This document shows positions 3,358-52,090 of a stretch of 64,000 nt of DNA, in pieces (the first letter of the stretch is position 1; each line of letters starts with the position of its first letter). A program made the translations under genes and the position numbers. Source of the DNA: Patescibacteria group bacterium UBA2135 (GTDB lineage: Bacteria; Patescibacteriota; Minisyncoccia; Phycocordibacterales; UBA2135); the NCBI GenBank assembly GCA_002327685.1, contig DCXN01000003.1, positions 6,981 through 70,980 of the forward strand. Reading direction: 5' to 3'. A model generated the notes under the pieces. That model was not told the DNA's origin, did no database searches, and saw nothing but the letters and a program-made list of their open reading frames with translations.

Positions 3358-3426
3358 CCGCCGCAAGGCCCGGCCTTACATGGGGATAACCTGTGCATAA
3401 ACCACCCCGCAAGGCCGGGCCTTGCG
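3358..3426. repeat. REP-like element, family 1 (copy 3)
   Basis: CCGCCGCAAGGCCCGGCCTTACATGGGGATAACCTGTGCATAAACCACCCCGCAAGGCCGGGCCTTGCG. Confidence 0.8.
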
Positions 3427-3499
3427 TAAGCTCCTCGCATGCCACACACAAAAAGCCCCTACAAAAGGGACTTTCCGCTCAAACCACTCAAAAAAACAA

Positions 3500-6328: not shown

Positions 6329-6397
6329 CGCCGCAAGGCCCGGCCTTACATGGGGATAAACTGTGGAAAACCTACCCCGCAAGGCCCGGCCTTGCGG
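6329..6397. repeat. REP-like element, family 1 (copy 4)
   Basis: CGCCGCAAGGCCCGGCCTTACATGGGGATAAACTGTGGAAAACCTACCCCGCAAGGCCCGGCCTTGCGG. Confidence 0.8.
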
Positions 6398-7272: not shown

Positions 7273-7341
7273 CGCCGCAAGGCCCGGCCTTACATGGGGA
7301 TAACTTGTTGATAAACTGCCCCGTAAGGCCGGGCCTTGCGG
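7273..7341. repeat. REP-like element, family 1 (copy 5)
   Basis: CCGCCGCAAGGCCCGGCCTTACATGGGGATAACTTGTTGATAAACTGCCCCGTAAGGCCGGGCCTTGCGG. Confidence 0.8.
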
Positions 7342-7955: not shown

Positions 7956-8024
7956 CGCCGCAAGGCCCGGCCTTACATGGGGATAAGTTGTTGATAACCC
8001 ACCCCGCAAGGCCGGGCCTTGCGG
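7956..8024. repeat. REP-like element, family 1 (copy 6)
   Basis: CGCCGCAAGGCCCGGCCTTACATGGGGATAAGTTGTTGATAACCCACCCCGCAAGGCCGGGCCTTGCGG. Confidence 0.8.
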
Positions 8025-10395: not shown

Positions 10396-10575
10396 CGAAC
10401 GGGAAAGGTCTGACCTTGAGGAAAAAACTGTGTCGCCAGGTCTGGCCTTGAGGAGGAGCGGAGCGACGGGAGAAGACCAGACCTTGCGGTACAGTTTTTG
10501 GGAAAAGGTCGGACCTCGCGGAGTCCATTTGCCGAACTGAGGAGTTTCAGCCCGAGACTGATCCGCCTCAGGCGG
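10396..10575. repeat. Family-2 GC-rich repeat array
   Basis: Units such as GGTCTGACCTTGAGG / CCAGGTCTGGCCTTGAGGAGGAGCGGAGCGACGGGAGAAG / ACCAGACCTTGCGG / GGTCGGACCTCGCGG. The core resembles the family-1 arm (CCGCAAGGYCCGGCCTT). Confidence 0.75.
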
Positions 10576-14129: not shown

Positions 14130-14199
14130 CCGCCGCAAGGCCCGGCCTTACATGGGGATAAGCTGTTGATAAACTACTCCATAAGGCCGGGCCTTGCGG
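14130..14199. repeat. REP-like element, family 1 (copy 7)
   Basis: CCGCCGCAAGGCCCGGCCTTACATGGGGATAAGCTGTTGATAAACTACTCCATAAGGCCGGGCCTTGCGG. Confidence 0.8.
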
Positions 14200-15863: not shown

Positions 15864-15884
15864 ACGCAGGGCCGGGCCTTGCGG
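15864..15884. repeat. REP-like half-element (family-1 arm) downstream of the RAYT gene
   Basis: ACGCAGGGCCGGGCCTTGCGGG. Confidence 0.6.
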
Positions 15885-16054: not shown

Positions 16055-16891
16055 TTATACCACAGTCACCCGTTGTTCTTGTTCTTGTTCTTGTGTTTGT
16101 TGCTGTGATTGTGTGCTTTCAATGTCTTCAGCACCTTCAGCATCTTTAACGTCTTCAACAATCTCAATCCGCGCATCTGCCTGCATATCCACCCTCCCCT
16201 CCTCACCCTCCAATTCAAGAATCTCTTTACTATACGTCAACCACGCGTTGATAAATTCATCAAATTCAGCAAAATCCTCAAAATATTCAGGGAAAAATTC
16301 TTTAGCGTTACTGACAATAGCGCCCTCCGGACGTACTTTCCCGATGAAATCCAAATAGCTTGAATAGTCATAATGCAAAAGCTGTGTGCGAGCTTCTTGC
16401 AGATTTTGAATACCTTTTTCTTTCCATGTTGAGTCAACTAGTTTCACCGGATTTAAATGAATATATGCAAAAAGATATCTCAAGTAATTATCGTGGATGG
16501 CGCGTTTTGACTTAAATCTGCCCTCAAACAACGTACCAGAACGTTCATATTTCGTATTGAAGTACATTGAATACGCCGTCATCAATTTTTGCATGAATCG
16601 TGAAATACCGTTTGGCTGTATTTGTCTTATGAGAATGTGAAAATGATTGGGCATCAAGCAATACGCGCCAATCGCCACAAGAGGTTTTCGTCGTGAAAAC
16701 ATTTTAAGCAATTCAGAAAAAGAAAGCGTTCTTAGAACTTCCATCCTAATTTCACTTTCACCATTACACACATACAATAAACGCATAAAACGATCATAAT
16801 CTTCCCTTTTGAGAAAAATATCACGCTTATCAACACCTCTATTATAGAGATGATAAAATTCATTTTCTGCAAATTGTTCTTTACGAGCCAT
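16055..16891 (-). CDS. REP-associated tyrosine transposase (RAYT; IS200/IS605-like Y1 HUH transposase)
   Basis: YHLYNRGVDKRDIF...AYCLMPNHFHILI (the HUH motif) ...GTLFEGRFKS...YLRYLFAYIHLNPVK (the catalytic Tyr). REP-like elements lie on both sides. Confidence 0.75.
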   Translation of the reverse strand: MARKEQFAENEFYHLYNRGVDKRDIFLKREDYDRFMRLLYVCNGESEIRMEVLRTLSFSELLKMFSRRKPLVAIGAYCLMPNHFHILIRQIQPNGISRFMQKLMTAYSMYFNTKYERSGTLFEGRFKSKRAIHDNYLRYLFAYIHLNPVKLVDSTWKEKGIQNLQEARTQLLHYDYSSYLDFIGKVRPEGAIVSNAKEFFPEYFEDFAEFDEFINAWLTYSKEILELEGEEGRVDMQADARIEIVEDVKDAEGAEDIESTQSQQQTQEQEQEQRVTVV

Positions 16892-16957
16892 ATGTTTGAA
16901 AATTACGCTTAATTACATCATTGTGTTTAATTACATGATTCTATCTTACAAGCACCA

Positions 16958-17031
16958 CCCCCGCAAGGCCCGGCCTTGCAAGTTATCCACAGGTTATCCC
17001 CCAAAAACCTCTCTCAAGGCCGGGCCTTGCA
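16958..17031. repeat. REP-like element, family 1, inverted variant (copy 9)
   Basis: CCCCGCAAGGCCCGGCCTTGCAAGTTATCCACAGGTTATCCCC...CAAGGCCGGGCCTTGC. The central part is the reverse complement of GGGGATAACCTGTGGATAA. Confidence 0.7.
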
Positions 17032-17116
17032 GAAAATCATCCACTCAAAAACCGCCTCACTTATTAGCAAGGCGGTTTTTAATGATTTGCTTTATCTTCG
17101 TATTAGCTTCTTTTCT

Positions 17117-20909: not shown

Positions 20910-20950
20910 CCCCGCAAGGCCCGGCCTTACATGGGGATAACCTGTGGATA
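20910..20950. repeat. REP-like element, family 1 (copy 10, left arm plus centre only)
   Basis: CCCCGCAAGGCCCGGCCTTACATGGGGATAACCTGTGGATAG. Confidence 0.65.
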
Positions 20951-21105
20951 GTGCCCGGTCTTCGCATTGCTTCGCGTCCCTAGGCAACTTCGTGCCGGGA
21001 TCCCGGCGGTAATGCCGTCTAGGGATTACCATTCGCATCATTTCGCATGGTATATTCGCACCGATTCGCATTACCCGTTCACGTTCTTGCGCTTATCATA
21101 AATAC
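20951..21105. other. GC-rich structured non-coding segment with palindromes and spaced TTCGCA(T) repeats
   Basis: GCCGGGATCCCGGC palindrome, TCCCTAG...CTAGGGA inverted repeat, and five (A/T)TTCGCA(T/C) motifs at roughly 10-bp spacing. About 55% GC in a ~40% GC context. Confidence 0.4.
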
Positions 21106-26879: not shown

Positions 26880-27034
26880 CCCCCCTCACTCGAAAAATTA
26901 TTGACGACGTAGAGCGAGGTAAATGGACGGGAAAGGTCTGACCTTGAGGAGGAGCGAAGCGACGGGAGAAGGTCGGACCTTGCGGAGTCCATTTGCCGAG
27001 CCGAGGAGTTAGTAACTTTTCGAGTGAGGGGGTG
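26880..27034. mobile_element. Non-coding MITE-like element with the same inverted repeats as the GIY-YIG element, carrying a family-2 repeat core
   Basis: Inverted repeats CCCCCTCACTCGAAAA (26881-26896) and TTTTCGAGTGAGGGGG (27017-27032) enclose GACGGGAAAGGTCTGACCTTGAGGAGGAGCGAAGCGACGGGAGAAGGTCGGACCTTGCGGAGTCCATTTGCCGAGCCGAGGAG. Confidence 0.55.
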
Positions 27035-30942: not shown

Positions 30943-31070
30943 AGCCAGGTCTAGCCTTGAGGAAAAAACTGTACGGCCAGGTCTGACCTTGAGGAGGAGC
31001 GGAGCAACGGGAGAAGGTCGGACCTTGCGGTATAGTTTTCGGAAGAAGACCAGACCTTACGGACCTTGTC
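30943..31070. repeat. Family-2 GC-rich repeat array
   Basis: CCAGGTCTAGCCTTGAGGAAAAAACTGTACGGCCAGGTCTGACCTTGAGGAGGAGCGGAGCAACGGGAGAAGGTCGGACCTTGCGG...GACCAGACCTTACGGACCTTG. Confidence 0.75.
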
Positions 31071-41666: not shown

Positions 41667-42764
41667 TTACGTTTTTTTACTAGACCGTCTCTCTTCCTTT
41701 TCAAGACGCTTTTCTTCTTCAAGCTTGTCTTGTTTATCTTTTTGAATGTCGTCAGTAAATTCAACAAGGGCAGCCGCAATCGGTACCGCAAGGATAATTC
41801 CTAAAAGCCCTGCAAGTTCTGCTCCGACAATAAGCGAAATGATAACTAAAATAGGAGAAACACCAACAACTTTTCTCACAACCAACGGATAAATCAGGTG
41901 GTTTTCAAATTGTTGAATAATAACATAAAGTCCAATAACCATAAGCCCTAGAGAAAAGCTTTGAAGAAAACCTAAAGCAATAGCTGGTATGGAGGCAAGA
42001 ATAGGGCCAAACAACGGAATTAATTCAAACAACGCCGCAAGTACCGCAAGTAAAAGCGCGTACGGTACCCCTAAAATAGTGAGTCCTAAATAGACCAAAA
42101 CACCAATAATAACACCCAGAAGAAGTTGTCCCTGCATCCATTTGCCGATTTTCATTTGCGAGCGATTCCACAGGTCCACTATATATTTTTCATGATGCAA
42201 CGGTGTAATGAGACGAAGAAAATTCTCAATTCCTTTTTTTTGAACTGCAAGATAAAAAGATATAACAATAATAAGTACGAAACTAAAAAGACCACCGAAG
42301 ACAGCGCTTAGAGACTGAACAAGCCCACCAGAAATACCTGTAGCAACATTTCTCAATTCTGCAACTGTCTCTTGAATTGAAAATTCCTGTGAAAATTGCT
42401 CAATAAAGGACTGTCCGCTTAAGAACCCACCGGCTTCTGGCGCAAAGAAAGTCAATGACTCAACATATTGCGGAAATGAGGAAAGAAGACCCGATGTCTC
42501 GTTAAGGAGAGGTGGTAGAAAGAGATAAAAGATTCCAATTAAAACAATTGCAAAAAAGAGATAGATAAAAATGACTGCCAAAACACGCGGTATCTTATAT
42601 CGCTCAAACAATTTTGTCATGGGTTCAATTGCTGATGCAATAACAACAGCAGTGAGAAGCACAAGAACAAGATCGCGCAAAATATATAAAACAACAAAAA
42701 GGAGCGCAACTAAAATTGCCTTGAAAAATGCAGCCGCATTGATGTTAATAGTCGTATTTCCCAT
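41667..42764 (-). CDS. AI-2E family transporter (PerM/UPF0118)
   Basis: 365 aa with eight transmembrane segments and a charged C-terminal tail. Typical AI-2E topology. Confidence 0.75.
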   Translation of the reverse strand: MGNTTININAAAFFKAILVALLFVVLYILRDLVLVLLTAVVIASAIEPMTKLFERYKIPRVLAVIFIYLFFAIVLIGIFYLFLPPLLNETSGLLSSFPQYVESLTFFAPEAGGFLSGQSFIEQFSQEFSIQETVAELRNVATGISGGLVQSLSAVFGGLFSFVLIIVISFYLAVQKKGIENFLRLITPLHHEKYIVDLWNRSQMKIGKWMQGQLLLGVIIGVLVYLGLTILGVPYALLLAVLAALFELIPLFGPILASIPAIALGFLQSFSLGLMVIGLYVIIQQFENHLIYPLVVRKVVGVSPILVIISLIVGAELAGLLGIILAVPIAAALVEFTDDIQKDKQDKLEEEKRLEKEERRSSKKT

Positions 42765-47862: not shown

Positions 47863-48053
47863 CCGCCAGGTCTGGCCTTGAGGAGGAGCGGAGCCGAGTC
47901 TGACTCGGCGCAGCGACGGGAAAAGGCCGGACCTTGCGGAACGGTTTTTTCTAATTTGCAGACCTTGAGAAAAAAACTGTGCAGCCAGGTCTGGCCTTGA
48001 GGAGGAGCGAAGCGACGGGAAAAGGCCGGACCTTGCGGAACAGTTTTCCGCAG
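47863..48053. repeat. Family-2 GC-rich repeat array (two large units)
   Basis: CCAGGTCTGGCCTTGAGGAGGAGCG(G/A)AGC...GACGGGAAAAGGCCGGACCTTGCGGAAC(G/A)GTTTT x2, one unit with an inserted CCGAGTCTGACTCGG hairpin. Confidence 0.8.
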
Positions 48054-51371: not shown

Positions 51372-52090
51372 GCATTTTAATCAATTTAATCAAAAAGAAC
51401 GCACGCGGTGCGTCCTTGCTCCTTGTTGACAGAACTATACTACAAATCCACTACCTACGCAATCATCTTTTTGAAACGCCGTCAGGTCTGGCCTTCCCGC
51501 CTGCCATCGCCCGACTGACCTTTGCGGACGATTAGGCAGTGGCGGGCAGGGAGGAGGAGCGGAGCGACGGGCCTCGGTCTCGGATAATTCTATACCAAGC
51601 ACTACAAGGCTTTTCTGACGGCTTTTAGTTTACTGTTTCAATGCTCCTCGGAACAAAGTGTAAATTGCTTATCCTCGTAAAACAAGCTATCCTTAGATTG
51701 GATGCTTGAGCAGTGCCGAGGCTAATACGGCGAGATCAGCACGCTAGCCCGAATACCTCGACAGTACTTTGACCGGCCTTAGCTTCAAAGTTGAGGAACG
51801 TCGTCCGTAACTATAACGGACCTTCGCTTGAGCATCCACTTTCTTCTAGCCATTTCTTTGGAAGTGGTTTTTCTATTATAAGAAGCTCTTCATACTCTGA
51901 TCATACTCTGAACCTACCCCGAACTACCTGACTGCTTAGAACGATGTTGAAACCTGTTTTATTTTATCAAATTAATCACTCGACAAAGATTCAAATGGCA
52001 GATAATGCTCGAATATTTTAATGAACATCGAGCTGTCCACAGAAACAAGAAAGCCGCCTACTTCAAACATAAAGTGACGGCTTATATTAA
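51372..52090. other. About 720-nt ORF-free region (candidate leader or ncRNA) containing a disrupted family-2 repeat
   Basis: No ORF of 60 aa or more in any frame. Mixed GC. Several stems (AACGCAC-GCG-GTGCGT; CCGCCTGCC...GGCAGTGGCGGG). The family-2 core (51481-51584) carries a 50-nt insertion. Confidence 0.35.
51481..51584. repeat. Family-2 repeat, disrupted copy
   Basis: GTCAGGTCTGGCCTTCC-[50-nt insert]-AGGGAGGAGGAGCGGAGCGACGGGCCTCGGTCTCGG. Confidence 0.6.

Follow-up and report, generated by a model that had tools for sequence, protein, structure and literature searches.

Introduction

Systems in which repetitive extragenic palindromic (REP) elements occur in pairs as REP doublets forming hairpins (REPINs), together with a REP-associated tyrosine transposase (RAYT), have been described, mainly in Proteobacteria, as lying outside genes, passing by vertical descent and having spacers that are not conserved. 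The genomes of Patescibacteria are streamlined and are thought to be poor in mobile DNA. In this study we analysed 64,000 nucleotides of Patescibacteria group bacterium UBA2135 (GenBank assembly GCA_002327685.1, contig DCXN01000003.1, positions 6,981 to 70,980), a stretch that we call the window and to which all coordinates refer unless a locus is named. An earlier note, made from the sequence alone, had pointed to two families of hairpin repeats in it. Family 1 consists of REP sequences, which also flank a RAYT-like gene; family 2 is a hairpin with a purine-rich loop and is our subject here. We put at roughly 55% the probability that family 2 is a REPIN-type, non-autonomous mobile hairpin moved by the RAYT.

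Three other described systems bear on this comparison. The bacterial interspersed mosaic elements (BIMEs) of Escherichia coli were reportedly described by Gilson et al. in 1991 as mosaics of REP or palindromic units (REP/PU) with conserved linker motifs, one of them with an IHF site. BIMEs are extragenic, BIME-2 arrays are tandem, and the linkers are enterobacterial and not shared between phyla. As in BIMEs, REP palindromes are here joined with a few conserved linker modules, and several mosaic types share the REP of one genome, family 1 of the window having DnaA-box-like linkers and family 2 a purine linker; unlike BIMEs, family-2 units are nested, their linker occurs in several phyla, and copies elsewhere are often intragenic. 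Rickettsia palindromic elements (RPEs) are said to have been found by Ogata et al. in 2000 in frame in unrelated, often essential genes. They are 100-150 bp long, are restricted to Rickettsia and add a short peptide without destroying the protein, and we know of no transposase for them. By description, family 2 behaves like the RPEs as a palindromic in-frame insertion that adds a short peptide to essential proteins, but its units are 49-75 nt long, are found in many phyla and are accompanied by a RAYT. The subterminal hairpins of IS200/IS605 elements and of their miniature derivatives, the palindrome-associated transposable elements (PATEs), are imperfect hairpins recognised as single-stranded DNA (ssDNA) by a Y1 HUH transposase. 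Family 2 shares with these the lack of DDE-type terminal inverted repeats and of an obvious target duplication, and differs from them in that no transposase gene lies next to it, in that we identified no defined tetranucleotides for guiding or cleavage, and in a strand bias relative to replication that is inconsistent.

REPINs and RAYTs are known from Pseudomonas fluorescens SBW25 and E. coli (Bertels & Rainey, PMC3116915, PMC3337134). Compared with the REPIN as defined in PMC3337134, family 2 likewise consists of two inverted imperfect REP palindromes and a spacer that form a long hairpin, is dispersed in copies that in the window are mostly intergenic, has a lineage-specific REP sequence, and occurs alongside a Y1/HUH gene that is flanked by REPs, vertically inherited by its synteny and apparently single copy. 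It differs from classical REPINs in a spacer kept to the letter across phyla, in copies that elsewhere are frequently intragenic and in frame, and in a window RAYT flanked by a different REPIN type (family 1).

A covarying hairpin with a constant loop

The 21-nt loop string GAGGAGGAGCGRAGCRACGGG was scanned against one genome per species (185,579 species), where by our own estimate about one match would be expected at random. Exact matches were found in 71 stretches, in genomes labelled Patescibacteria, Planctomycetota, Elusimicrobia and others, and in about 55 of these stretches the loop is flanked by complementary arms, while five, from high-GC genomes, lack the setting of a hairpin and seem to be chance matches in coding sequence. 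Judged by sequence, the window copies belong to a family that is spread over Patescibacteria and several other phyla. The arms differ between lineages, being of the type AAGG-N5-CCTT in the window and in Paceibacteria-type genomes, AACCTCSGAGGTT in Roizmanbacteria, and GGGGGTCAGAC / GTCTGACCCCC in three Planctomycetota metagenome-assembled genomes (MAGs), with CATCSGATG, ATCCCGGGAT and others as further types. The earlier note had drawn attention to the kinship of one arm with the REP core; the part that is conserved and defines the family is the loop and not the arms, and it is common to several phyla.

In an alignment of 38 sequences, helix P shows changes on both sides in 13 of 13 arm pairs, and 88% of its cells are paired, compared with about 43% after the 3' partner is slid by 1-3 columns. 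The arms of L008, L052, L067 and L019 are not self-palindromic and are still mutually complementary, indicating that the arms are inverted repeats, as in REPINs; pairing, asymmetric arms and folds all agree with arms that are inverted and pair into a hairpin. Helix P contains 26 G.T/T.G pairs against 15 A.C/C.A mismatches (about 20 against 7 when three misaligned rows are removed by hand), an excess consistent with folding of the purine strand, and in folds of the window copies the + (purine) strand is always more stable than the - strand, with DNA and RNA parameters alike.

The unit is a 12-13 bp helix of two inverted REP palindrome copies around a 25-nt purine-rich spacer. When folded, this spacer gives a 5x5 purine internal loop (5'-GAGGA / 5'-GGGAA), a single G-C pair, G.A/A.G pairs in tandem and a GCGNAGC mini-hairpin. 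The canonical apex reads GCGAAGC or GCGGAGC and a nested variant reads GCGCAGC, all of which fit GCGNAGC. This is the d(GCGNAGC) mini-hairpin of Hirao and co-workers, described as extraordinarily stable in a 2026 review (PMC13037366); that work is biophysical and concerns no genomic repeat family, and in family 2 the apex is replaceable and so is not the invariant part.

The exactness of the loop among the GAGGAGGAGCGRAGCRACGGG matches follows from the design of the search, and a model-based search therefore weighs more. A covariance model (CM) made from 38 members recovered, in the same genomes, further copies in which the apical GA-GCGAAGC-GA is deleted or swapped for other small hairpins (CCCCGA...TCGGGG, CCATCC...GGATGG), with the arm-adjacent 5'-GAGGAG and CGGGAA-3' constant in these copies. 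Nested hairpins are built in tiers, with outer arms that carry the GAGGA/GGGAA internal loop, a AAAAACTGT/ACAGTTTTT helix and an inner unit. Because the apex is replaceable and the outer tiers share the internal loop, the invariant anatomy consists of the helix, the purine 5x5 internal loop and an apical helix. As for the role of the loop, we would guess that it nucleates folding and/or serves for recognition.

We considered whether the internal loop could be read as a K-turn or a loop E; on our own inspection its consensus fits neither. Rfam 15 gave no family at gathering score over the window units or 18 loci, and an E-value search of one window site (site 4 below) returned only chance microRNA-hairpin matches. 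A full-text literature search with the core loop string and its variants gave no relevant match, and searches for REPINs or RAYTs in Patescibacteria and for palindromic elements in Patescibacteria genes returned no description of this element. We also observed, in a Saccharibacteria MAG (L024 1177-1228 and 1856-1907; L028 1300-1350), a second hairpin family that has a short, unrelated apex, AAGATGTTCC, and keeps the arms and the outer CGGGAAG/CGAGGAGCC flanks, in parallel to the two arm-sharing families of the window.

Arms that follow the local RAYT-flanking REP

The window carries a gene for a RAYT-like Y1 (HUH) transposase of 278 aa on the - strand (16055-16891), recognised by its match to PF01797 (E=6.6e-8, 33.1 bits against a cut-off of 23), by its HUH (NHFHILI) and tyrosine (YIHLNPV) motifs and by synteny. 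Its sole NCBIfam match is NF047646, 'REP-associated tyrosine transposase', at 39.8 bits and under the cut-off of 80, and its clade differs from the described RAYTs in being long (220-280 aa) and in falling under that cut-off. A single family-1 REP arm (15864-15884) adjoins the 3' end of the gene, and a family-1 REP pair whose loop carries TTATCCACA (16957-17035) adjoins its 5' end. Orthologues in L083 and L084 lie in the same gene order and are each flanked by family-1-type REP pairs, and this synteny indicates vertical inheritance of the RAYT, which these contigs carry once. Its homologues number more than 7,600 and, among the matches listed, all those with taxon-specific source names are from Patescibacteria; a hidden Markov model of the RAYT run over our loci matched only the window, L029 and L081-L085.

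The RAYT-flanking REPs of all six loci examined have the form AAGG-N5-CCTT (TAGG...CCTA in L085). In the window, the flanking REP AAGGCCSGGCCTT stands beside the element arm AAGGYCKGRCCTT, and in the sister locus L081, whose RAYT is 82% identical, the flanking REP AAGGTCTGGCCTT equals the family-2 left arm of the window, with no family-2 copy in the 7 kb covered there. In L085 the core of the flanking REP is AGGTCTTGCCT and the element arm AGGTCTTTCCT, and in L029 the local REP variant is CCGAAAGCTCGGCTTTCGG and the arm AAAGCTTGGCTT; in both loci the arms are within 1-2 bases of the local RAYT-flanking REP. The L085 RAYT is 49% identical to that of the window and lies 370 nt from a uvrB gene with two copies. 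The arm and the REP thus match in all three testable lineages (window/L081, L029 and L085).

Within the window, the earlier note had placed the reverse-complemented right arm of family 2 one base from the family-1 arm (CCGCAAGGTCCGGCCTT versus CCGCAAGGCCCGGCCTT), and we find this relation in the copies at 47923 and 48022 and a difference of 2-3 bases in the rest. The left arm CCAGGTCTGGCCTT has, with up to 2 mismatches, 9 matches in the window against 0.16 expected; the right arm has 29 against 0.03 expected, a count that takes in family-1 arms. Family-1 REPs reach just 15-24 bits in the CM search, on both strands, with the arms only contributing. From the arm relation the note had suggested that one RAYT could mobilise two REP families. 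A RAYT is indeed present and the arms match RAYT-flanking REPs in three lineages, although the RAYT itself is flanked by family 1 only. Since the element arms track the local RAYT-flanking REPs, one RAYT for both families is reasonable and is taken as the best explanation, and we infer that the RAYT acts on family 2.

The loops of the family-1 REP pairs have a feature of their own, in that each holds two DnaA-box-like 9-mers 11 nt apart, TTATCCCCA with TTATCAACA or TTTTCCACA. Such loops occur in the window at 236-302, 2002-2064, 3361-3427, 6331-6397, 7275-7341, 7958-8024, 14133-14199, 16961-17032 and 20912-20951, and the family-1 loop at 16983 holds a perfect TTATCCACA. With up to 1 mismatch, DnaA-box-like 9-mers have 39 matches in the window against 17 expected. 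Three related genomes retain the TTTTCCACAnnnTTATCCACA loop in the REP pairs beside their RAYT genes (L081 1080-1165, L083 9905-9985/10673-10750, L084 9122-9199).

Copies inside genes and presence/absence differences

In low-GC genomes most copies lie within long open reading frames (ORFs) on the same strand, 16 of the 21 intragenic copies are read in frame as ...EEERSDGK..., and the wider family has about 30 copies within ORFs, in frame. With in-frame intragenic copies this frequent, the term extragenic does not seem to fit the family as a whole. In Patescibacteria a form of 63 nt (21 codons) sits, with the frame kept, in the genes for UvrB, a ClpC/ClpB-type ATPase, Obg and IleRS, conserved housekeeping proteins that are unrelated to one another.

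When the interrupted UvrB is aligned to solved UvrB structures, only a block of 21-23 residues falls outside the alignment. In a set of 120 UvrB homologues, locus L085 of a second genome (P0200) has two more copies at other positions, so that orthologous UvrB of two genomes holds three independent insertion sites, with near-identical blocks of 63 nt (GGCGGGAAAAGGTCTTTCCTTGAGGAGGAGCGAAGCGACGGGAAAGGTAAGACCTTGAGGAGC). UvrB orthologues that carry no insert contain no arm sequence where the insertions lie; the nearest insert-free relative is only 74% identical, which leaves no nucleotide-level empty site for comparison. Neither the three UvrB insertions nor other copies show a direct duplication of the kind found at the (DDE-type) ends of miniature inverted-repeat transposable elements (MITEs); their flanks have short inverted complementarity instead. 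Patescibacteria UvrB (P0135-P0239) has two insertion hot spots, at consensus position ~336 and in the linker after VRPxxx, and these also hold unrelated in-frame insert peptides such as LRHSHSVLEGQVLSGRSEDSS and RRNLRYDQKELALSGQSANDGEDTLGT, which are probably the product of further families of hairpin elements.

Scanning metagenomes for the window-type variant added 26 loci, with nine further copies within long same-strand ORFs (L098 repeats L025). About a dozen of the loci have window-type AAGGTCTGGCCTT arms, several of the records having Tara-type CEPV accessions, and five of these align to the window at 89-94% identity. One of them, the contig L087, keeps the gene order of the window at 89-90% identity but not its element content. 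Missing from L087 are the 20-nt insert in the loop of the copy at 47867-47942 and, with blurred boundaries to the difference, the second unit of site 4; it has an extra copy, absent from the window, upstream of the orthologue of window gene 41667-42764. The loop-insert variant (CGAGTCTGACTCG) is present at a different L087 site (2378-2462). Clean ends or a target could not be read from these differences between the window and L087.

Nested copies occur in both orientations. In the related marine contig L109 (1880-2030) the outer tier lies opposite to the inner unit (CCGACCTTCTCCC-AAAAACTGTG...), indicating nesting in both orientations. No vectors were found by an IMG/VR pattern scan, nor among phages and plasmids by BLAST of the 63-nt unit, and no gene is common to the neighbourhoods of the 71 loci. 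Outside the 63-nt unit, some copies have an extra 2-5 bp of copy-specific complementarity (TCCGA/TCGGA, AGGG/CCCT, GGGC/GCCC, CTGG/CCAG; L085 10645-10735 and 11045-11130, L018 4215-4300, L044 1260-1340), partly in host codons; a preference for palindromic targets, or a palindrome that grew outwards, could account for it.

A different setting is seen in contigs labelled Elusimicrobia or Planctomycetia (L014 4840-5120(-), L066 5600-5845(-), L065 6006-6070(-)), where the 21-mer ends an insert of 115-150 nt directly 3' of a tRNA-Ser gene, and behind it the tRNA 3' end (T-loop to acceptor) stands a second time, together with the terminator; L066 then has the beginning of another tandem unit.

The six copies of the window

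The CM search of the window gave exactly six family-2 copies, every one on the + strand, at five sites. All six are intergenic, and four of the six are antisense relative to both neighbour genes. The earlier note had read the five sites as multi-unit arrays. The unit is present at all five, but three of the supposed arrays are single multi-tier nested hairpins, the folds of 10396-10526, 30943-31066 and 47960-48052 each giving one nested hairpin and no head-to-tail arrangement. The RNA folds for which the note had called show consistent nested hairpins, and so do folds with DNA parameters.

Site 1 is a three-tier nested hairpin (10396-10526), recognised by sequence, CM and folds, with outer arms CGGGAAAGGTCTGACCTT-GAGGA (10399-10422) and GGGAAAAGGTCGGACCTCGCGG (10500-10521), a middle helix AAAAACTGTGTCG / TACAGTTTTT, and an inner family-2 unit at 10436-10489 with its loop at 10450-10474 (CM match 10430-10494, 68 bits). 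It folds as one nested hairpin with -30 kcal/mol for DNA (z -4.6) and -62 kcal/mol for RNA (z -5.9). The stretches 10522-10575 and 26986-27012, taken for further units in the earlier note, contain no family-2 unit; by sequence comparison both are a shared 3' extension (GAGTCCATTTGCCGAACTGAGGAGTTTCAG... at 10522-10575) that reads GAGTCCATTTGCCGArCyGAGGAGTT, and a GCGGAGTCCAT... tail likewise stands 3' of copies in the related marine contigs L091-L093.

Site 2, 88 nt upstream of ftsK, is a single complete unit, CGGGAA-AAGGTCTGACCTT-[GAGGAGGAGCGAAGCGACGGGAGAA]-GGTCGGACCTT-GCGG (26928-26985; CM 26926-26990, 76.4 bits), supported by folds. A 16-nt inverted repeat, CCCCCTCACTCGAAAA / TTTTCGAGTGAGGGGG (26880-26900, 27013-27032), encloses it. 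Site 3 lies between the convergent recA(+) and a 615-aa gene(-) and is a nested hairpin by its fold (30943-31066), with an inner unit at 30977-31030 (CM 30971-31035, 66 bits).

Site 4 holds two copies. The first (47863-47942; CM 47867-47942, 51.5 bits) carries in its loop the CCGAGTCTGACTCGG insert that the earlier note had placed at 47895, and which we find to be real: it is 20 nt long (~47895-47914), consists of the 13-nt palindrome CGAGTCTGACTCG and a second GCGNAGC, and is absent from the orthologous copy in L087. The palindrome CGAGTCTGACTCG stands between two GCGNAGC mini-hairpins, an arrangement that resembles a 7-nt duplication. The second copy has an A-run/T-run outer helix (47960-48052; inner unit 47985-48038; CM 47979-48043, 76.7 bits) and is likewise supported by folds. 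A scan of three sites for an intrinsic terminator (GC-rich hairpin, loop of 3-8, then a T run) found none, and the A-run/T-run outer helices are only suggestive of a terminator-like feature. The Logan contig L080, from the same strain, stops at window position 48012, within a family-2 unit, indicating that these repeats break short-read assemblies. Site 5 is a degenerate copy (51482-51591; CM 51531-51591, 31 bits) with its left arm at 51482-51495, a hairpin insert at 51496-51550, the loop at 51551-51571 and its right arm lost. The insert is the one noted earlier at 51498 and is about 55 nt long.

Proposed mobility by the RAYT and its alternatives

In the reading that we favour, the element would be excised and inserted as ssDNA by the apparently single-copy RAYT (Y1/HUH) of 16055-16891, with the purine strand as the folding strand. 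The arms would confer specificity for the RAYT and would hence change with the RAYT/REP pair of each lineage; new copies would also insert into the apex of older ones and so give rise to the nested 'arrays'; and the 63-nt form would survive in essential genes by keeping the frame and by coding for a hydrophilic peptide, GGKRSFLEEERSDGKGKTLRS. We infer the RAYT as the enzyme, ssDNA as the substrate and the role of the loop.

Several observations weigh against this reading. None of the RAYT genes examined has a family-2 unit beside it, the flanking REPs being simple or of the family-1 type, and a Planctomycetota MAG rich in copies has no RAYT in its sampled contigs, which are a small part of that genome. 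Each RAYT of Pseudomonas goes with a single REPIN type, and classical REPIN spacers are unconserved apart from their ability to pair (PMC3337134), while the family-2 spacer is identical across phyla, which the RAYT model alone leaves unexplained. No target site or duplication could be defined. Ongoing transposition was not seen among the contigs of the same strain, whose complete identity makes the comparison uninformative on polymorphism. Orientation is strongly biased, about 28 intragenic copies being sense and 2 antisense, and among the intergenic copies of other low-GC genomes all 13 have the sense orientation, which could point to a role at the RNA level; it is mixed in the window and its marine relatives.

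In a bolder reading, GAGGAG-(GA-GCGNAGC-GA)-CGGGAA would be a portable ssDNA/RNA recognition or folding cassette, required by a Patescibacteria-wide RAYT clade or by another conserved factor. Joined to the REP palindrome of each lineage, it would make up a class, not described before, of 'coding-competent REPINs' of 63 nt and 21 codons that sit in frame in essential genes and have crossed phylum boundaries. We offer this extension tentatively and regard it as rather doubtful.

The unit could also be mainly a functional RNA or ssDNA motif and not a selfish element, a motif whose loop binds a widely conserved protein or stabilises or attenuates transcripts, whose stem need only pair, and whose copies are kept by selection where they lie in untranslated regions and are tolerated where they lie in ORFs. 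A conserved loop with covarying stems is the classic sign of a structured, protein-bound nucleic acid, and the strong sense bias outside the clade of the window, the G.U-compatible changes and the greater stability of the purine strand point the same way, as does the position of many intergenic copies 15-40 nt upstream of start codons or just past stop codons. The A-run/T-run outer helices of the window resemble bidirectional attenuators, a feature that some REPINs share (PMC3337134). Such a motif would not be expected at arbitrary positions in unrelated essential genes, where copies appear to be translated through, nor antisense to both neighbours, as four of the six window copies are; the Rfam and terminator scans found nothing and the K-turn consensus does not fit the loop. 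Arms that track the local REP are needless for a free-standing RNA motif. We consider this explanation unlikely.

Mobility without the RAYT, by another enzyme, by template switching in replication or repair, or by reverse transcription of the hairpin RNA, is in our judgement also improbable. Here the likeness of arm and REP would result from recombination or gene conversion with the resident REPs. A shared enzyme would account most simply for the match in all three testable lineages, and the neighbourhoods offer no common candidate gene and the phage, plasmid and IMG/VR collections no vector copies. Consistent with such a route are the identity of the loop in phyla without a RAYT in the sampled DNA, the RAYT genes not being flanked by family 2, the 2-5 bp of copy-specific flank complementarity, as outward palindrome growth by template switching would yield, and the 13-nt palindrome between the duplicated GCGNAGC.

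Finally, insertion of only the ~25-nt core into an existing REP palindrome, with the arms as its target-site duplication, is very improbable: the arms are palindromic in many lineages, so that they can also be read as direct repeats, and they resemble resident REPs, but those of L018 (AAGGTCTTTCCTT / AAGGTAAGACCTT) differ by 1 base as inverted and by 4 as direct copies, the asymmetric arms of L008, L052 and L067 are likewise inverted, which contradicts a target duplication as the origin of the arms, and uninterrupted UvrB orthologues lack arm sequence at the insertion sites.

Genomic setting of the window

The window has a GC content of about 42% and is a bacterial chromosomal segment with recA, ftsK, rplJ/rplL and numerous orphan ORFs, and its proteins have their best homologues in Patescibacteria MAGs. 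Nine contigs from other marine metagenome samples (ENA, JGI, Logan; one named after Tara PRJEB1787) are 100% identical to it, and exact-protein look-ups place it in a clonal marine population. Nearly all genes lie on the - strand, the ftsK-recA block being the main exception, and the GC skew is -0.1 to -0.36 across most of 1-64000 (+ strand), a very strong asymmetry. A replication-strand bias of the element was considered and rejected, as the motif strand has no uniform GC skew from locus to locus, the window showing the reverse of most loci.

Implications

These results place a REPIN-like element in the streamlined genomes of Patescibacteria. Its arms track the local RAYT/REP pair, yet three properties set it apart from the REPIN-RAYT systems described so far: its occurrence in such genomes, a spacer kept letter for letter across phyla, and a form that lies in frame inside uvrB, a clpC/clpB-type gene, obg and ileS. 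On the practical side, the hairpins break assemblies and put inserts of 16-25 residues into conserved proteins of MAGs. If the link to the RAYT is true, families 1 and 2 would be a pair of substrates with the same arms and different loops, with which to ask what a RAYT recognises; if that link fails, the loop would be a widely conserved nucleic-acid motif.

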